Source: Candidatus Obscuribacteraceae bacterium
Lineage (GTDB): Bacteria; Cyanobacteriota; Vampirovibrionia; Obscuribacterales; Obscuribacteraceae
Direction of reading: 5' to 3'
Length of the DNA: 64,000 nucleotides
NCBI GenBank assembly: GCA_044226015.1
Contig: JBGAHS010000001.1
Coordinates: 1,056,001 to 1,120,000 of the forward strand
Positions 21,562 through 49,503 of the stretch are shown here, piece after piece. A program made the position numbers and the translations under genes. Below the pieces are notes generated by a model. It saw only the letters and a program-made list of their open reading frames with translations. It did not search any database and was not told the DNA's origin. Positions within the stretch are counted from its first letter, which is position 1, and every line of letters begins with the position of its first letter.

Positions 21562-21741
21562 TTAGAGTCCAACGATTTGAAGGTCGCCGAGCAGTTCGGA
21601 CATGCCGTCATCGCCGCCCTCTTTTAAATAGTCCATGTAGTACTGATAGCCTTCGGCGATTACTTGCATACCTTGCAGGTGCTGAGGAGCTTCTTTGGTT
21701 TCGTTTCTTTTGGATTCTTCGTTGGTGGTTCTTGCGTCCAT
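21562..21741 (-). CDS. 59-aa small protein, copy A (not in ORF track)
   Basis: Hand translation MDARTTNEESKRNETKEAPQHLQGMQVIAEGYQYYMDYLKEGGDDGMSELLGDLQIVGL; GAGG SD; paralog differs mostly at synonymous sites. Confidence 0.85.
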   Translation of the reverse strand: MDARTTNEESKRNETKEAPQHLQGMQVIAEGYQYYMDYLKEGGDDGMSELLGDLQIVGL

Positions 21742-21773
21742 TGCTCTCTTCCTCGCGACCCCTGATGCTTTTT

Positions 21774-21828
21774 AGATTACGCAGCCTTTAGGGCTGACCC
21801 TGGTCTTGTTCGGGTCAGTTTTGGGTCA
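21774..21828 (-). promoter_or_regulatory. Putative activator-dependent promoter of copy A
   Basis: Minus-strand TAATCT (21774-21779); plus-strand TGGTCT/GGGTCA/GGGTCA at 21801, 21812, 21823 (11-bp period); same offsets as copy B. Confidence 0.6.
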
Positions 21829-21842
21829 ACAGTTAAAACAGT

Positions 21843-21870
21843 GGCGACCACGCAGAATTGCGTGGTTGTC
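21843..21870. terminator. Hairpin between the two small-protein copies
   Basis: ACCACGCA-GAAT-TGCGTGGT core; T run follows on the minus strand. Confidence 0.5.
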
Positions 21871-21886
21871 TCTGTTGTGTTGGGGA

Positions 21887-22002
21887 GCGGGCAGGGTTGG
21901 GCGCGGACAGGGTTGGGCGCGGGCAGGGTTGGGCGCGGACAGGGTTGGGCGCGGGCAGGGTTGTGAGCGGACGGGGTTGGGAGCGGACAGGTTGGGAGCG
22001 GA
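21887..22002. repeat. G-rich 16-bp tandem repeat, about 7 copies, consensus GCGGRCAGGGTTGGGM
   Basis: Units start at 21887, 21903, 21919, 21935, 21951, 21967, 21983 (15 bp), plus a partial unit at 21998. Confidence 0.95.
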
Positions 22003-22182
22003 TTAAAGTCCAACGATTTGCAGGTCACCCAAAAGCTCGGACATGCCATCATCGCCGCCCTCTTTCAAATAGTCCATGTAGTACTGATAGCCTTCAGCAA
22101 TTACTTGCATACCTTGCAGGTGCTGAGGAGCTTCTTTTGCTTCGTTTCTTTTGGATTCTTCGTTGGTGTTTCTTGCGTCCAT
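22003..22182 (-). CDS. 59-aa small protein, copy B (not in ORF track)
   Basis: MDARNTNEESKRNEAKEAPQHLQGMQVIAEGYQYYMDYLKEGGDDGMSELLGDLQIVGL; GAGG SD; 57/59 identical to copy A. Confidence 0.85.
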   Translation of the reverse strand: MDARNTNEESKRNEAKEAPQHLQGMQVIAEGYQYYMDYLKEGGDDGMSELLGDLQIVGL

Positions 22183-22214
22183 TGTTTTGTCCCTCGCCCG
22201 TCCCTTATGTTTAG

Positions 22215-22291
22215 AGAATATCGAGGGACTGGGTCAGCCCTCGGTCTGGTTTGGGGCAATTTTGGGTCAGTAGATAAAAACGCATGGGTCA
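22215..22291 (-). promoter_or_regulatory. Putative activator-dependent promoter of copy B
   Basis: Minus-strand TATTCT (22215-22220); plus-strand GGGTCA 22231, CGGTCT 22242, GGGGCA 22253, GGGTCA 22264, GGGTCA 22286. Confidence 0.6.
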
Positions 22292-23666: not shown

Positions 23667-23898
23667 GTCGCTTCATGCCTGAGAATGATAGTTTCTGTTC
23701 TGCACCTTGCTGGAGGAATCGACTGTTTCATCGGTCTTTTTTGACCTGGTAGCAGGTCAACCTGAATCGATTGTCGTGCATGAAAATTGAGTGAAATCCG
23801 ACCTGTCAAATTGTGCAGAATTCATGCGTGCTTATCCCTGTGAGGAATTAAGTGGGGCGATTACGATGTTTCCTGTAGGACATCTAGAGGGCGGGCAA

Positions 23899-24405
23899 AT
23901 GGGCGAACGTAATAACCAACCAGAAAACAGCGATTGTCATGAAAAAGGCACTTCTGCCGGCGAAAAATCAAATCTTTGCTTACTAGACATTGTGAATGGT
24001 GGAAAAGCTGGCGCATCAAAAAATGATGAAATCGTTGGTGTTGCGAAGAGTAGTCTCGGAGACGAACTCTGGCGTAAGACCGAGGGCGTTACTGGTTCTA
24101 TGGGGGCGGCTGCAGCGGTCAGCGAAGTGTTGTTGAAGGCTGGTCTTATGGACCACAGCGTTGGAACTGTTAAAGATGTGGCTAAAATTCTGAAAGAAAA
24201 GCACTGGGAGCCACGTAAAATGGATGAGCGTCAACCAGGTGACGTGATGCTTCGGACCAATGATGGTTTCAGTAACATTGGTATTGTTGGGCCAGACAAC
24301 ACAGTTTTCGTGAACCGTCGCAATGGAGTCTTTTCACAGATGTCTATAGGCAACTCAAGCTTACGTGAGAATGCGCTAGTCTTTCATCCACCCGAAAAGA
24401 AGTAA
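23899..24405 (+). CDS. Hypothetical protein with a degenerate NlpC/P60-like domain
   Basis: AKSSLG..GAAAAVSEVLLKAG...QPGDVM...SNIGIV; GAGG before ATG 23899. Confidence 0.55.
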   Translation: MGERNNQPENSDCHEKGTSAGEKSNLCLLDIVNGGKAGASKNDEIVGVAKSSLGDELWRKTEGVTGSMGAAAAVSEVLLKAGLMDHSVGTVKDVAKILKEKHWEPRKMDERQPGDVMLRTNDGFSNIGIVGPDNTVFVNRRNGVFSQMSIGNSSLRENALVFHPPEKK

Positions 24406-28646: not shown

Positions 28647-29144
28647 ATGAGTGACACTGTAATCGGACCAGTAGAGCAACAAACTAAAGCCTCTGTAGCT
28701 GAAGGTAAGGAACTGGCGAAGATTCTCGAAAGCGACCGCAACGGTGGGGAACAAAAGGTTCGCACCCGATTGCTAAATGATGCTTTTGATTCGGCTCATG
28801 GAAAATTCAACATGGAAACAATTAAGAAATCTATGATTGAAGATTTGAATGCTCAACATTTGCCCGGATTGGAACTAAAGGAAGACAAGCTTGGCAATGT
28901 ATACAAAAAGGGATTGTCGATTCCTGGCACGAACATAGAATTGAACAATGTCTCCGTGTTCGATCGTTCGCAAGCAGATGCATACGTTGCTCACATGGAT
29001 GAAATCAACGGGCAACGACCACAAGAGCAAAGCAAGAAATCCGACGCAATTGACACCAGACGCGTAGACATCTTCGGTGCTGTCAATAATCTGGAAAAAC
29101 TTTTTGGACAGATTTATGAAGCAGGCAAGGAAAAGAAGAAATAG
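28647..29144 (+). CDS. Hypothetical protein
   Basis: Hydrophilic ORF with purine-rich SD before ATG 28647. Confidence 0.65.
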   Translation: MSDTVIGPVEQQTKASVAEGKELAKILESDRNGGEQKVRTRLLNDAFDSAHGKFNMETIKKSMIEDLNAQHLPGLELKEDKLGNVYKKGLSIPGTNIELNNVSVFDRSQADAYVAHMDEINGQRPQEQSKKSDAIDTRRVDIFGAVNNLEKLFGQIYEAGKEKKK

Positions 29145-35780: not shown

Positions 35781-36584
35781 ATGCAAAGTCATGAGCTTTC
35801 GAAAAAAGATGAGGAAAAGGCTCTGCCAGAGCCTGATCAGACGCAAGCTTCGGGTGATGGTTGGGAGTCGGCTGGCGCCGCATTGCCAGCCGCAGAGCCG
35901 ATAAAGGAAGCATCAGTTGTTGTCGCCGAGGCTGCCCACGAGCTGAGATTACCTATCGCTAATATAAAACTTCTGGTTGAAACGCTTCTTGATGGAGCGC
36001 TTGACGATAGAGAGGTTTGCAAGAGAATGCTCAAACGTGCCTATCAAGAGGTTGAGCGCTTGCAGGCTTTAGTATCTGACTTGCTGGCACTTGAGCAGGT
36101 GGCCGAGCGGCGCAATGATTTGAAATGCGAATGGATGCTTTTGAAAGAACGCGTGAAGTACGCAGTTGAAAGTGTCTCGAAACAAGCAAGAGAGAAGTCC
36201 GTGGAAGTGCTCATAGACATTGATGATGCACTTCCCATCTTTGCCAACAAGGGGCAGCTCGACCAGGTGATTTTGAATCTATTGGAAAACGCTGTGAAGT
36301 TCACCGAAGATGGTGGGCGCGTTTCGATCATTGGTGGACCGAAGCCCGGGTGTTTCCGCATCGAAGACACCGGTATTGGTATGCCCGAGTCAGAGATTCC
36401 CAAAATTTTTTCCAAGTTTTATCGCATCGACAAAAGCATTTCAAAAGGCGGAACTGGTCTCGGACTTTCTATCGTGAGGCAAGTTCTTGATCTGCACGGT
36501 GCTAAAATTTCAGTCAAATCACAGGAAGGTGTGGGCTCCTGTTTCTCACTTGAGTTTCCCAGTTCAAAACCAGGAGTTCGTTGA
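35781..36584 (+). CDS. Cytoplasmic PhoR-like histidine kinase lacking a sensor domain
   Basis: AHELRLP H-box, NLLENAVKF, DTGIG, GGTGLGL; adjacent to the regulator and phoU. Confidence 0.85.
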   Translation: MQSHELSKKDEEKALPEPDQTQASGDGWESAGAALPAAEPIKEASVVVAEAAHELRLPIANIKLLVETLLDGALDDREVCKRMLKRAYQEVERLQALVSDLLALEQVAERRNDLKCEWMLLKERVKYAVESVSKQAREKSVEVLIDIDDALPIFANKGQLDQVILNLLENAVKFTEDGGRVSIIGGPKPGCFRIEDTGIGMPESEIPKIFSKFYRIDKSISKGGTGLGLSIVRQVLDLHGAKISVKSQEGVGSCFSLEFPSSKPGVR

Positions 36585-36586
36585 GT

Positions 36587-37330
36587 ATGAGCAAGACACA
36601 ACAAAAGATCATGCTCGTCGATGACGATGACACCATAGTAGAGACTCTGGAATTCAATTTAAGTCGGCAAGGCTACGGCATAACTATTTTTCGCAATGGT
36701 CAATCTGCACTTTCCGGTGTGGATCGTTCTAGCCCTGATTTGATTATTCTTGATTGGATGCTGCCTGATATGGTGGGTCCAGAAATCTGTAAAGTCTTGC
36801 GCAGCCGTGCGGTTGAAGTGCCAATCTTAATGCTTACAGGGCGTTCTACTCCGAATGATGTGGCGGAGGGGTTGCGTTCTGGTGCAGATGATTACCTGGC
36901 TAAGCCTTTTAGTACCGTTGAACTGCTAGCCAGAGTGCAAGCGCTTCTGCGCCGAGCTGGAAAAAATCCACGCTCCAGCAAGCTTATTGTTGGCACACTG
37001 GAATTAGATGAGGAAGCTCGCTCTGTCACTCATAAAGGCAAGAGCATTGATGTTTCTCCAAAAGAATTCAATTTACTCAAAGTGCTGATGATGAATGCTG
37101 GTAAGACGATGTCTACAGAGGTGCTGCTTAACCAGGTTTGGGGTTATGATTTCCAGGGAGACGCTAAAACGGTTGCTGTGCATATTCGGTGGCTGAGGCA
37201 AAAGTTAGAGAAAGACCCGCAAAATCCAGAATTGCTGGAAACAGTGCATCGATTGGGTTACAGGCTCAATCAAAACAAAGAAGAGCTTAGTGGTGGCAGC
37301 AAAGAGTCAACGCAGGAGAATGGAAAGTGA
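36587..37330 (+). CDS. PhoB-like response regulator
   Basis: ILDWMLP, KPF, TVAVHIRWLRQKLE, ETVHRLGY. Confidence 0.9.
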   Translation: MSKTQQKIMLVDDDDTIVETLEFNLSRQGYGITIFRNGQSALSGVDRSSPDLIILDWMLPDMVGPEICKVLRSRAVEVPILMLTGRSTPNDVAEGLRSGADDYLAKPFSTVELLARVQALLRRAGKNPRSSKLIVGTLELDEEARSVTHKGKSIDVSPKEFNLLKVLMMNAGKTMSTEVLLNQVWGYDFQGDAKTVAVHIRWLRQKLEKDPQNPELLETVHRLGYRLNQNKEELSGGSKESTQENGK

Positions 37331-37968
37331 AAACTAGAGCTGTCACTTTGATGAAAGAAGATGTGCTTGCTCTGGGGCGCCTTGTTAGTGAAACCATGCA
37401 AGAACTTTCACGTGTGCTCAAGAAAGATTCAAGTGCTAAGTTTGAACACATGATCAAGTATGAGGAGCAAATCAATGCTGCCTGTCAGAAAATTGAGGAG
37501 AAGTGTCTCGACCTTCTGAACGAGAATAAGGATTTGACCCAGGCTGAAAACAGAGCTCTGGTTGGTAGCACGTTGATTGCTGCGAAGTTTGAGCGCCTGG
37601 CTGACCATGCTTATCGCGTGGCGAAGTATGTTTCTTGGGTCGCGTCGGAAGATGTTCAGATTCCTCCCGAATTTTTAGAAATAGTGGGTGTCGTCTCTCG
37701 CATGGTTGACGACGTGTTGCTCTGTTTTCTGACTGATAATGTTGAGCGCATCGAAGAGATTATGCAGCGCGACAGTCAGATCGACTATTTGCATGATTGG
37801 CTCTCTAAGCAACTTTTGCAGGATATTGGAGAACAAAATCAGGAAGATGCTCAGACCACAATGCAGCTTCTATTTTGCATTCGTTATCTCGAGCGTATGG
37901 GTGATGCCTGTACATCTGTGGCAAAACGCGTACACTTCATAGTTACTGGTAAACGTATTGGAACTTAG
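37327..37968 (+). CDS. phoU: Phosphate signalling protein PhoU
   Basis: Two helical repeats with ERLADHA and LERMGDAC. Confidence 0.9.
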   Translation: MKTRAVTLMKEDVLALGRLVSETMQELSRVLKKDSSAKFEHMIKYEEQINAACQKIEEKCLDLLNENKDLTQAENRALVGSTLIAAKFERLADHAYRVAKYVSWVASEDVQIPPEFLEIVGVVSRMVDDVLLCFLTDNVERIEEIMQRDSQIDYLHDWLSKQLLQDIGEQNQEDAQTTMQLLFCIRYLERMGDACTSVAKRVHFIVTGKRIGT

Positions 37969-47684: not shown

Positions 47685-48443
47685 TCAGGTTGTTGCCAAT
47701 CGAACACGTTTGAGCAAATCGTCCAGCGCAGGTTTCGCTCCTGCGGATTCAGGCAGCAAGCTTTTTTGCCCAGAGACTTCCAGATTTTTGAGCATTCGCT
47801 GAAACTCGTGTTCGTGAAACTCTAGATCCTTATTGCTGAGAGTTTGTTTTTCTTTTGTGCTGCTTTTGCGCTCTATTAGTTCGTCAATGAAGTTCAGGTG
47901 AAATCTTGTTTCATTCAATTTTTTCAAATTCGCTTCGATTTCTCCCGTTTCCATCAAATGAATGCCGGTCAAGATTACTCTGTATGTGTACAGCAAGGGT
48001 TTTATTCTCGCAGGATTTTCCTTGTTGAATAAGTTCCACTGATTGTTCGCAAACCCTAAATAGTGGTGAACATGCATTCGGGTGATGCAGTCTTTTGCAA
48101 TTTGCTTCAGTTCTTCGTGCTCTGGCGATGTTCTAATTATCAGTGGTGAGTAGAGTTGCTCGAGCACATACCCATTCTTTTTCAGGAGCAGTTTGAAAAA
48201 CTTCTTTATGTCATGCGTCACAAGGTCTAATTCTATGTTGTTGCGAAACTCAGAAAGCTCTGTCGTCTCCTCGCTTTCATCCAGCCCGATGATTTCACTA
48301 ACTGGAAGTATATGCACACCGCGCAAATCCCAATCAGAATCTGGAGAAGGGAAACCATATAAGTGTGCACCACTTACAGTGGCAAAAAGCAAGGGGAATT
48401 TGTGCTTGTCTGAGGCTTCAAAGAGTTCGGCTGGGAAATTCAT
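47685..48443 (-). CDS. RlaP/YcgL-type predicted nucleotidyltransferase
   Basis: SGAHLYGFPSPDSDWDLRG, KKNGYVLEQL, KPLLY. Confidence 0.88.
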   Translation of the reverse strand: MNFPAELFEASDKHKFPLLFATVSGAHLYGFPSPDSDWDLRGVHILPVSEIIGLDESEETTELSEFRNNIELDLVTHDIKKFFKLLLKKNGYVLEQLYSPLIIRTSPEHEELKQIAKDCITRMHVHHYLGFANNQWNLFNKENPARIKPLLYTYRVILTGIHLMETGEIEANLKKLNETRFHLNFIDELIERKSSTKEKQTLSNKDLEFHEHEFQRMLKNLEVSGQKSLLPESAGAKPALDDLLKRVRLATT

Positions 48444-48552
48444 GGCTTCCTTTCAATGCTTGTGATATGTTTTGTCAGTTAAGATGATTCTGCTTTGTCG
48501 TAACGAGCTCACGAACTCCGAGAGTTTACTGTGTCTTAATTAAGGCTGTTTG

Positions 48553-49503
48553 TTACTCAACTCGGGACTTTCGTGCCTTAATCAAAAACTCGTTGCACCA
48601 TTCATAATCTGGACGTTCAGGAAGCTTCGTATTTTCGAAGGCGGCATCAAAGTCTTTGTGAAGATTCAGGCGCCACTCATTTACTTCTTCCCATGCAAGC
48701 TCACCATTGCGAATCGCCATGAAGCGCTGGCGCTCATCTGCAACTTTCACAGGAACAAAGCCTTCTTTTAGGATTGTGATTCCGGATAGGAGAAGTCGAA
48801 CAAGGTGCATTACATGCTTCCATTTCAGTTTGCCCAAAGTTCGCAAATCTTGCTCAAGTTTTCTAAATTGCGATATGACGTAGCCGTTGTAGGTTTGATA
48901 GACCAGGCACGATAAGAATTTTTCCCTGTTTTCCAAGAGTTCCGCAGCAAGGGCATCTTGCTCTTCGATAATCGGAGTGTATAGGCACTCAAGTACATTC
49001 GGGTTTGCCTTCAACGCAAGAATTAGGAACTTTTGCATTTCCCAATAACATTCTTGTGTCTCATCGTTTTCAATTTGTTCTGGAATTCCATAGAGTGACC
49101 ATTGCATTCTAGTTGGTGGAAGATAGATGCCTCTGCGGTCAATGTCCGAACTGTCGACATCGAGTCCAAAAGCGCGAGAGCCGACGATGCAACGATAAAT
49201 TACGTATTGAAATAGATCGCGGTCTCCAGGCTCTGCATCCGGGCGATCGAAATGCAGGTTTTGCAGATGCTTTCTGATAGCTAATTCGCTACGGTGCAGG
49301 CTTGCGCTCTCGCCATCGGGAAAAAGCACCTGATAGGCATTTTTATTGTTTTCCGGCGCTTGTACTATTTTGCCGACAGCGCCCTGTCTTCTAATTGAGT
49401 TGCCGTCTCGATCTCGCAGCTCAACTACAGTGACAACTTGTGTCCCCACAGGTAATACCAGTGACTCTTTAAGTTTTTCATGCTCTTCTGACATAAATTC
49501 CAA
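48553..49503 (-). CDS. RlaP-type predicted nucleotidyltransferase with an N-terminal SH3-like domain
   Basis: GSRAFGLDVDSSDIDRRG, KANPNVLECL, KHVMHLVRLL; start may be ATG 49494. Confidence 0.88.
   Translation of the reverse strand: MEFMSEEHEKLKESLVLPVGTQVVTVVELRDRDGNSIRRQGAVGKIVQAPENNKNAYQVLFPDGESASLHRSELAIRKHLQNLHFDRPDAEPGDRDLFQYVIYRCIVGSRAFGLDVDSSDIDRRGIYLPPTRMQWSLYGIPEQIENDETQECYWEMQKFLILALKANPNVLECLYTPIIEEQDALAAELLENREKFLSCLVYQTYNGYVISQFRKLEQDLRTLGKLKWKHVMHLVRLLLSGITILKEGFVPVKVADERQRFMAIRNGELAWEEVNEWRLNLHKDFDAAFENTKLPERPDYEWCNEFLIKARKSRVE

Follow-up and report, generated by a model that had tools for sequence, protein, structure and literature searches.

Export signals that do not use the Sec route usually take the form of a conserved N-terminal module placed before variable cargo. 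LXG, MIX and the planctomycete extracellular motif are N-terminal leader motifs of polymorphic exoproteins. A precedent for action in trans is provided by Lap1 and Lap2 (DUF3130/DUF3958), which are targeting factors of the T7SSb (PMC9600955), and a small secreted regulator has been described in Pseudomonas aeruginosa, where the 81-aa ExsE sequesters a chaperone (PMC7303211). For the predator Vampirovibrio chlorellavorus, which is related to the organism studied here, a T4SS has been proposed on the basis of prediction to deliver proteins (PMC4451040), and the PHO box is built from an 11-nt head-to-tail repeat unit (PMC4415409). Obscuribacterales are common, uncultured, non-photosynthetic cyanobacterial relatives with many large proteins that possess extracellular-type domains and lack a signal peptide, and our literature searches found no description of the route by which such proteins leave the cell.

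We analyzed a window of 64,000 nucleotides (the whole stretch of DNA under study) from a genome of this order, which contains two unannotated ORFs of 59 codons each together with the following features:

22003..22182, minus strand: copy A, gene of a 59-aa, putatively leader-only protein (P0001; ORF, codon comparison, AF2 model)
21562..21741, minus strand: copy B, gene of a 59-aa, putatively leader-only protein (P0002; ORF, codon comparison)
22192..22195, minus strand: GAGG, Shine-Dalgarno-like, 9 nt ahead of the ATG of copy A (sequence)
21751..21754, minus strand: GAGG, Shine-Dalgarno-like, 9 nt ahead of the ATG of copy B (sequence)
22215..22279, minus strand: promoter-like element of copy A, with TTTTAT, repeats from 22269, a TATTCT -10 box at offset 49 and the ATG at offset 87
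21774..21838, minus strand: promoter-like element of copy B, with the first repeat at 21828, a TAATCT -10 box and the ATG at offset 87
21883..22002, no strand: 16-bp tandem repeat, 7.6 copies, between the cassettes (repeat scan)
21843..21870, no strand: hairpin of 12 pairs between the cassettes (folding; z of -1.6 for the whole spacer, which is weak)

A preliminary description of this DNA had singled out the pair as two 180-nt minus-strand ORFs lying 441 bp apart, each with a GAGG Shine-Dalgarno motif, and differing in ten synonymous and two amino-acid-changing codons. Coordinates and spacing were re-derived as claimed, the GAGG is in place before both ATGs and a recount of the codons returned the same figures, the two changes being N5T and A15T. 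The 12 differing codons contain 14 nucleotide differences, corresponding to a pS of 0.31 and a pN of 0.021 (NG86; Fisher p ~1e-6). Since the differences crowd at the 3' end, with seven in codons 45-59 as against two in codons 1-27, gene conversion between the copies may add to their 5' identity. No copies other than these two are present in the host genome. Orthologue pairs reveal selection independently of any such conversion: over 34 core codons, the orthologues of the relatives G003 and G005 (same genus) give a pN of 0.025 and a pS of 0.70, and copy A compared with the G005 orthologue gives a pN of 0.20 and a pS of 0.66. The dN/dS check across orthologues that the preliminary description had suggested thus places pN far below pS, and the constraint holds. 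The earlier view of both copies as real, maintained genes is borne out by the purifying selection seen between paralogues and between orthologues, by the conservation of a promoter-like element and by at least ten more short homologues. The 59-aa peptide is homologous to the N-termini of longer, uncharacterized proteins; the objection that it is a fragment of a known longer protein nevertheless does not apply, because the peptide has its own stop and a conserved length and because no HTH, helical or beta-rich domain remnant was found near the peptide genes. In a metatranscriptome (one run, 10% of words) gcvPB and a 75-aa gene were covered and the peptide genes were not, a result that is uninformative on the latter because it consists of contigs only.

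The neighbours of the pair are gcvPB, an exonuclease, a small membrane protein, YkuD and a catalase-peroxidase. Neither a RiPP-modifying enzyme nor an RRE gene was found among the 40 window proteins scanned, in agreement with the earlier remark that no modifying enzyme is adjacent, and no Rfam family was detected in the peptide region. Between the cassettes, the 16-bp repeat has no close match elsewhere in the host genome, and the hairpin may end the transcript of copy A. The orthologues of G003 and G005 are single-copy genes encoding 57 and 59-67 aa and are situated between ABC transporter and permease genes. The same transporter-permease junction is without a peptide gene in the host genome, as is the gcvPB locus in five relatives; gene and promoter therefore occur at different sites as a cassette of ~300 bp. 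Elsewhere in the window we noticed a polar-start protein without Pfam match 1.6 kb from the pair (23791-24405, plus strand), a phoRBU-like row of histidine kinase, OmpR-type regulator and phoU genes (35781-37968, plus strand), at which none of the top-scoring sites of the TGACC box described below is located, and two adjoining RlaP-family nucleotidyltransferase genes (47685-49494, minus strand).

The preliminary description had also ascribed a hydrophobic tail (LLGDLQIVGL) to the peptide, a feature that proves weak on the Kyte-Doolittle scale, where the best 11-residue mean is 1.15 and the best 19-residue mean 0.11. The 59-mer is acidic with a net charge of -7 and contains no signal or membrane segment; the low hydropathy and this charge rule out the tail both as a signal peptide and as a membrane anchor. 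An AlphaFold (AF2) model predicts a confident amphipathic helix at residues 20-40, followed by a Gly turn, a short helix at residues 47-51 and an extended tail. A fold search with this model returned no informative match (best Z 2.8), and the prediction of a two-copy complex of residues 14-59 scored 0.02 and carries no weight either way. There was no usable match in Pfam, NCBIfam, PHROGs or the ESM Atlas and only a chance-level match among PDB sequences (Trp-cage, E 1.8), so the family, unrecognized in the preliminary description, was matched by none of the curated collections either. Within the 16 stand-alone forms G42 is invariant and G43 is conserved in at least 90%, the second Gly reaching 56% family-wide. 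Counted from Gly42-Gly43, the invariant K40 occupies position -4 and D37 position -7. The nearest orthologues carry an Asp at a site where 88% of the family has Ser.

As judged by sequence comparison, the 59-mer is the stand-alone form of an undescribed module of ~45 residues with the layout helix-LKxG-x-SG[IV]SxxFG, for which 89 segments yield the family consensus Y-x2-Y-x3-L-K-x-G-x2-S-G-I-S-x2-F-G. A single-protein query gave matches in seven of 61 genomes, the host included. A 12-row profile detected the module in 41 of the 104 genomes that make up a single family of Obscuribacterales in our set. Run against 1.84 billion representative proteins, it picked out 54, and of these P0038, P0043 and P0054 (with 6-13 short repeated stretches each) were discarded as repeat artefacts before alignment. 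We set aside a tally of 49 out of 107 genomes as a module count, since it also includes matches to a motif-less helical domain. A profile of the stand-alone forms had no match in 300 genomes from elsewhere in the phylum, none of 540 candidate stretches from a metagenome scan was confirmed, and a crowded and hence weakly informative search with the stand-alone profile A3 returned no longer homologues. Literature searches, with a coverage short of subscription journals and supplements, found no description of the module or the regulon. Within the databases and literature searched, microprotein family and regulon thus appear as real and undescribed entities.

The module is almost always positioned near the N-terminus and occurs in five settings, some proteins carrying it twice. 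Class (a) consists of stand-alone proteins of 57-99 aa (ten of the 54 library matches plus others), whose completeness was checked on the DNA for G003, G005 and G034 only. The module is fused to an HTH-like domain in class (b) (weak Pfam matches, best E 1.9e-4, below cut-off), to a helical domain of ~190 aa in class (c) and to a beta-rich domain in class (d), where six of seven wide loci are divergent from the gene of a giant polar-start protein; in class (e) it is the leader of long, diverse proteins. The host genome contains no class (b), fused class (c) or class (d) form. Separate proteins of ~200 aa with the helical domain of class (c) and no module are encoded in many relatives and, in two copies, in the host. 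A fold search with this domain gave no clear match; the best hit, a Cbp3 homologue (Z 6.8, rmsd 3.8, 141 aligned), was discounted because it falls within the chance range for helical bundles. The two module-less proteins of the host (G000 C8:254362-254979 and C10:10774-11367) are candidate partners of the peptide. At L041, L042, L044, L045, L053 and L054 the beta-rich carrier is divergent from a polar-start giant of 2,400-2,900 aa or more, one of which ends in a C-terminal GGDEF domain, and these loci often lie beside receiver-kinase and histidine-kinase genes. A degenerate module precedes an unrelated domain at L017:880-1614 (G007), on a long branch near the stand-alone group, and may represent a recent fusion.

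Class (e) comprises 24 proteins from 20 loci, with LysM in six, RHS in two and annexin in three of them (two of the three annexin matches being below cut-off) and at least one of these domains in ten of the 24. In all 24 the module follows a polar start, mostly at residues ~25-70. The proteins start polar by inspection and lack a signal peptide, hydropathy having been computed for the host-genome carriers. LysM and RHS are extracytoplasmic domains, and proteins that bear them without a signal peptide need a non-Sec route. The carriers are often followed by a partner gene of 200-215 aa and are sometimes organized in tandem arrays. The host genome itself encodes four strong long carriers (30-48 bits) and a weaker fifth, as compared to at most 6.5 bits for a mid-protein control. 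Tandem long carriers at L084, L086 and L070, many with a ~210-aa partner gene, look like polymorphic effector-partner cassettes. In profile-profile comparison, the stand-alone profile A3 matched the profile A7, built from 22 long-carrier leaders, with a probability of 97.7% (E 2.4e-12, 47 ungapped columns); on this measure the stand-alone forms scored 95.0% with the closest long-carrier subfamily and 98.5% with class (c). In a tree of 43 columns, whose bootstrap is unsettled, the long carriers form a clade of their own (99/98) with the peptide outside, and the stand-alone forms are scattered and poorly resolved.

The module ends where the 59-mer ends. The tail of the peptide matches the pattern (LP/FG)xLxIxD, which peaks at residues 40-60 of polar-start proteins, with 8 per 10,000 positions there versus 0-4 elsewhere. 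A matrix of the LP-type tail did not place the peptide above its own shuffles (52/200), and an unbiased search for k-mers enriched in polar N-termini yielded nothing decisive. Genome-wide, the pattern may represent a wider leader motif of the lineage (for example in the window at 28647-29144, plus strand), and a looser form of it is present in five of 25 cargo paralogues versus 41 of 605 polar background proteins. A 386-aa polar-start protein (G000 C3:77145-78305) was considered as a module carrier and rejected, having only 7.8 bits and a terminator-like hairpin before its gene; it possesses a ChaN/HopBA1-like domain and a motif-like stretch and is encoded downstream of a boxed pilin-like gene.

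Both copies are preceded by an element of four TGACC(C)-like repeats at offsets 0, 11, 22 and 33, that is with an 11-bp period, plus a -10 box at offset 49. The element is without a canonical sigma-70 pair, and the repeats overlap the -35 region. According to the preliminary description the flanks of the two genes have diverged, which is true of the spacer between box and ATG (24 of 48 positions differ) and untrue of the 48-nt upstream element, which is 75% identical. With a matrix built from 11 other sites, and hence independent of the two promoters, the element scores 52.4 bits at copy A and 45.5 bits at copy B; these two take the 10th and 13th place in the genome. Sites above 20 bits number 16 in the host genome (11 of them seeds) versus none in the reversed genome. 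The strong sites, ~14 besides those of copies A and B, are intergenic, and their targets include three 43-aa hydrophobic peptides, a 69-aa peptide, a pilin-like gene, a lipoprotein-like gene and five polar signal-less proteins. No box was found at six module carriers or candidates of the host genome, at its seven other pilin starts or, among its best 70-bp box scores, at the two motif-less helical genes, and none of the box-controlled polar proteins of at least 100 aa is among the module matches. Box-controlled polar proteins are encoded, among other places, at C11:282899, C1:270049 and C6:35587.

The orthologues keep the element at an unchanged distance from the ATG. In relatives, the box precedes two of three stand-alone homologues and adjoins five of six class (c) loci (three by the full matrix, four by a 17-bp core), where it precedes a small polar protein; for classes (b), (d) and (e) it was seen at one of two, two of 16 and one of 24 loci, respectively, and reversed controls gave none for the stand-alone homologues or for any of the four fusion and carrier classes. 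These counts are to be read with the noise of the 17-bp core matrix (80 vs 36 genome-wide), the unequal length of the loci and thresholds set after part of the data had been seen. A DNA pattern search found the element in two of five genomes; a stricter pattern, too strict in effect, found it in one of 104 genomes and in no relatives. Since an 11-nt head-to-tail unit defines PHO boxes, we infer that an OmpR/PhoB-type activator may bind the element, and the host genome contains 41 OmpR-type domains, including a regulator encoded at C8:110022 next to a divergent pair of boxes. Other winged-helix regulators also use 11-bp-type spacing. Two groups of boxed peptides deserve mention in their own right. 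Four unannotated hydrophobic peptides of ~43 aa with Cys-x-Cys near the end are encoded at G000 C12:399324-399850 and C1:749581 (L059, L060), three in tandem and three boxed, with no family match. The boxed 69-aa peptide (G000 C10:52155-52361) has near-identical paralogues at C8:67415 and C8:66413, 1 kb apart, and a D-V-F-G-E-L stretch in its C-terminal part that resembles the tail of the 59-mer family.

Export machinery was searched for in the host genome, which is 92% complete. Within this assembly there was no match to a T3SS/flagellar export gate (FHIPEP), to an eCIS/phage sheath or to CagE_TrbE. A VirB4/TraC-like ATPase, present in eight of eight genus genomes, is encoded in a chromosomal cluster; it matches TraC_F_IV above the Pfam cut-off (E 1.8e-15), NCBIfam matches being below curated cut-offs. 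In seven of seven relatives the gene is one open frame of ~900 aa, and in the host it contains two adjacent stops at C1:183870-183880, from a lesion or an assembly error. The cluster (G000 C1:182285-193398, L057) also contains TadE-like genes. VirD4-like matches are located in other, mobile-looking regions apart from this cluster, one of them an ICE-like block with a VirD4-like gene at G000 C10:63035-71720. The pilin-like gene, called by sequence pattern only and without Pfam or NCBIfam match, encodes a signal peptide, a polar linker and two hydrophobic segments; it has 13 matches in the host and occurs in 106 of 107 genomes of the order with 1-34 matches each. Eight near-identical pilin-like genes are found at G000 C3:78548-79072, C3:86005 and C6:245241-292024. 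Matches to peptidase C39 fall in ORFs of 243, 2322 and 2886 aa, none of them seen in the window.

We thus start from the two genes and the selection acting on them, the module they share with other proteins, the portability of this module and the common upstream element, all of which are observed directly. The explanation that we favour, tentatively and at well under an even chance, is that the leader-only 59-mer serves as a trans-acting export tag for tagless proteins that are induced with it and exported by a T4SS-like machine. It is preferred because the peptide is the module alone, because it shares its element with module-less polar proteins and because fused versions adjoin such proteins. 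An OmpR/PhoB-type regulator would bind the 11-bp repeats and induce the two copies along with one pilin-like gene and the genes of further small peptides and of small polar proteins without a signal. A component of the export machinery would recognize the amphipathic helix and the G-x-S-x-x-[FL]-G tail, in cis on the long carriers, and the free module would supply the same recognition in trans, as may the helical and HTH fusions beside box-controlled cargo genes in relatives. The free peptide would bind the co-induced tagless proteins and bring them to the type IV-like machine, and duplication of its gene would raise the dosage. Several findings speak against an export tag. HTH, all-helical and beta-rich proteins of cytoplasmic appearance begin with the module as well, and in profile comparison the peptide is nearer to the helical fusions (98.5%) than to the long carriers (95.0%), whose clade in the tree excludes it. 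On the same side count the Asp of the nearest orthologues in place of the family Ser, the lack of the box at the module carriers and other pilin starts of the host and its rarity at class (d) and (e) loci, a pilin call by pattern only, the two stops and sub-cut-off NCBIfam matches of the VirB4-like gene of the host, and an LP-type tail matrix that did not lift the peptide above its shuffles. Moreover, with the module detected in 41 of 104 family genomes and the pilin-like gene in almost every genome of the order, the module cannot be the general export signal. A wider and more doubtful version would be a modular export code for the chromosomal T4SS-like machine, in which one 45-residue helix-turn-tail label has three uses, namely in cis on LysM, RHS and annexin effectors, on cargo-side adaptors and as a free microprotein that licenses or senses the export of the entire set of co-regulated tagless proteins.

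The leader evidence, that is the profile match and the LysM, RHS and annexin carriers, would equally suit a peptide that is itself a minimal export substrate, either a decoy that competes for the leader receptor and restrains the long carriers as long as the regulon is active, or an exported sensor in the manner of ExsE and FlgM that ties transcription to an open channel. Its small, acidic, cargo-less nature fits this role, the peptide is boxed and the long carriers are not, as a switch between substrate classes would need, and the HTH fusions would be exportable regulators. However, neither a chaperone nor an anti-activator gene adjoins the peptide gene in three loci, the 92% complete genome lacks a recognizable T3SS or flagellar export gate, and the fused versions beside tagless box-controlled cargo would be left without explanation by this role alone, so we consider it unlikely. 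The trans tag and this rival share the premise of a leader, so that export in either form (trans tag and decoy or sensor together) stands at slightly better than an even chance. Rather unlikely in our view is a module that works inside the cell as a docking helix for a common partner, be it a signalling protein or the ~200-aa helical domain, with the free peptide as a feedback regulator under its own regulator or as the split half of a helical-domain protein. Small feedback proteins such as MgrB and Sda are common in two-component regulons. The weak HTH-like fusions, the frequent position of beta-rich fusions beside receiver-kinase and histidine-kinase genes, the split and fused occurrence of the helical domain, the closeness of the peptide to the helical-fusion class, the tree and the patchy distribution all favour docking. 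It leaves unexplained, though, why the module heads signal-peptide-less LysM, RHS and annexin proteins; the kinase adjacency is weak evidence because kinase and regulator genes are very common, as the 41 OmpR-type domains illustrate; the model of a fused protein, with a pLDDT of ~50-70 for the module versus ~90 for the domain, indicates no confident packing; and the two motif-less helical genes are absent from the best box scores of the host.

The preliminary description had offered three functions, of which an adaptor fits best. A signalling peptide or modified-peptide precursor fits poorly because the module heads long unrelated proteins, no modifying enzyme was seen in the window and the sequence departs from the double-glycine leader pattern. 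Such a precursor would release a 16-mer by cleavage after Gly42-Gly43 or be cross-linked at its Tyr cluster, and its product would perhaps auto-induce a regulator that binds its own promoter. The nearly invariant GG of the stand-alone forms speaks for it, as do the regulator-activated promoter and small size, which are known from pheromone loops, and the ABC transporter gene directly upstream in G003 and G005. The host genome, however, has the same ABC gene without a peptide beside it, and the same sequence is found at the start of proteins that reach 1,500 aa and more. Double-glycine leaders have hydrophobic residues at -4 and -7 by consensus, where K and D are found here, and the second Gly is poorly kept in the wider family (56%). 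With no modifying enzyme among the 40 window proteins, no curated precursor family in Pfam or NCBIfam and C39 matches in the three ORFs named above, we regard this reading as improbable. Most improbable of all is that the ORFs have no function and are left over from a longer gene, their likeness being due to recent duplication and gene conversion. Such leftovers would account for the homology to the N-termini of longer proteins, for differences uneven along the gene and for the missing RNA cover in one run of contigs only, yet pN is far below pS in copies and orthologues, orthologues of 57-67 aa end alike at another chromosomal site behind the same promoter element, and no remnant of a fused HTH, helical or beta-rich domain lies nearby.

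If the favoured reading of a tag in trans holds, the locus would reveal an export leader plus a small trans-acting factor in this lineage. The module would then serve as a marker for candidate exported proteins and the 59 residues as a bait for the receptor. With its ~16 sites, several of which precede other very small genes, the promoter element delimits a regulon that can be tested. Even if the export reading is wrong, the protein module is new and portable and comes in a microprotein version that stands alone.

Compared with the systems introduced above, the 59-mer resembles Lap1/Lap2 in being a small helical protein with part of an export signal that would act in trans on cargo, as proposed here. 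The Lap proteins are WXG100-like, carry an FxxxD motif and co-occur with LXG effector genes (PMC9600955). The 59-mer has the family motif G-x-S-x-x-F-G and not FxxxD, and no long effector gene adjoins it in three loci. Set beside a WXG100-like hairpin, its model shows one long and one short helix (best structural Z 2.8). The 59-mer, a single long helix followed by a short tail, has a promoter to itself, is encoded away from cargo and recurs in cis on long proteins; no homology to Lap proteins was found. Like FlgM, and like ExsE (PMC7303211), it would be a small cargo-less protein linked to an export pathway and a regulon, from which it differs by the T3SS/flagellar gate not found here, the absence of an adjoining chaperone and of sequence similarity. 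Its promoter-like element resembles the PHO box and OmpR/PhoB operators in its 11-nt head-to-tail units upstream of a -10 box without canonical -35, and differs in that the unit is TGACC(C), not CTGTCAT or GTTCACC, and repeated up to four times (PMC4415409). Unlike those of the PHO regulon, the listed targets are not recognizable phosphate genes. V. chlorellavorus belongs to the same class of organisms, and a conjugation-type machine is proposed for protein delivery there too, as a prediction in another order and with no substrate signal described in the part of the source cited (PMC4451040). With LXG, MIX and the planctomycete motif, the module has in common a conserved N-terminal position before variable cargo, often a partner gene of ~200-215 aa and some tandem arrays. 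It differs from all three by a new sequence without Pfam or NCBIfam match, by its presence in one family only and by its stand-alone microproteins.
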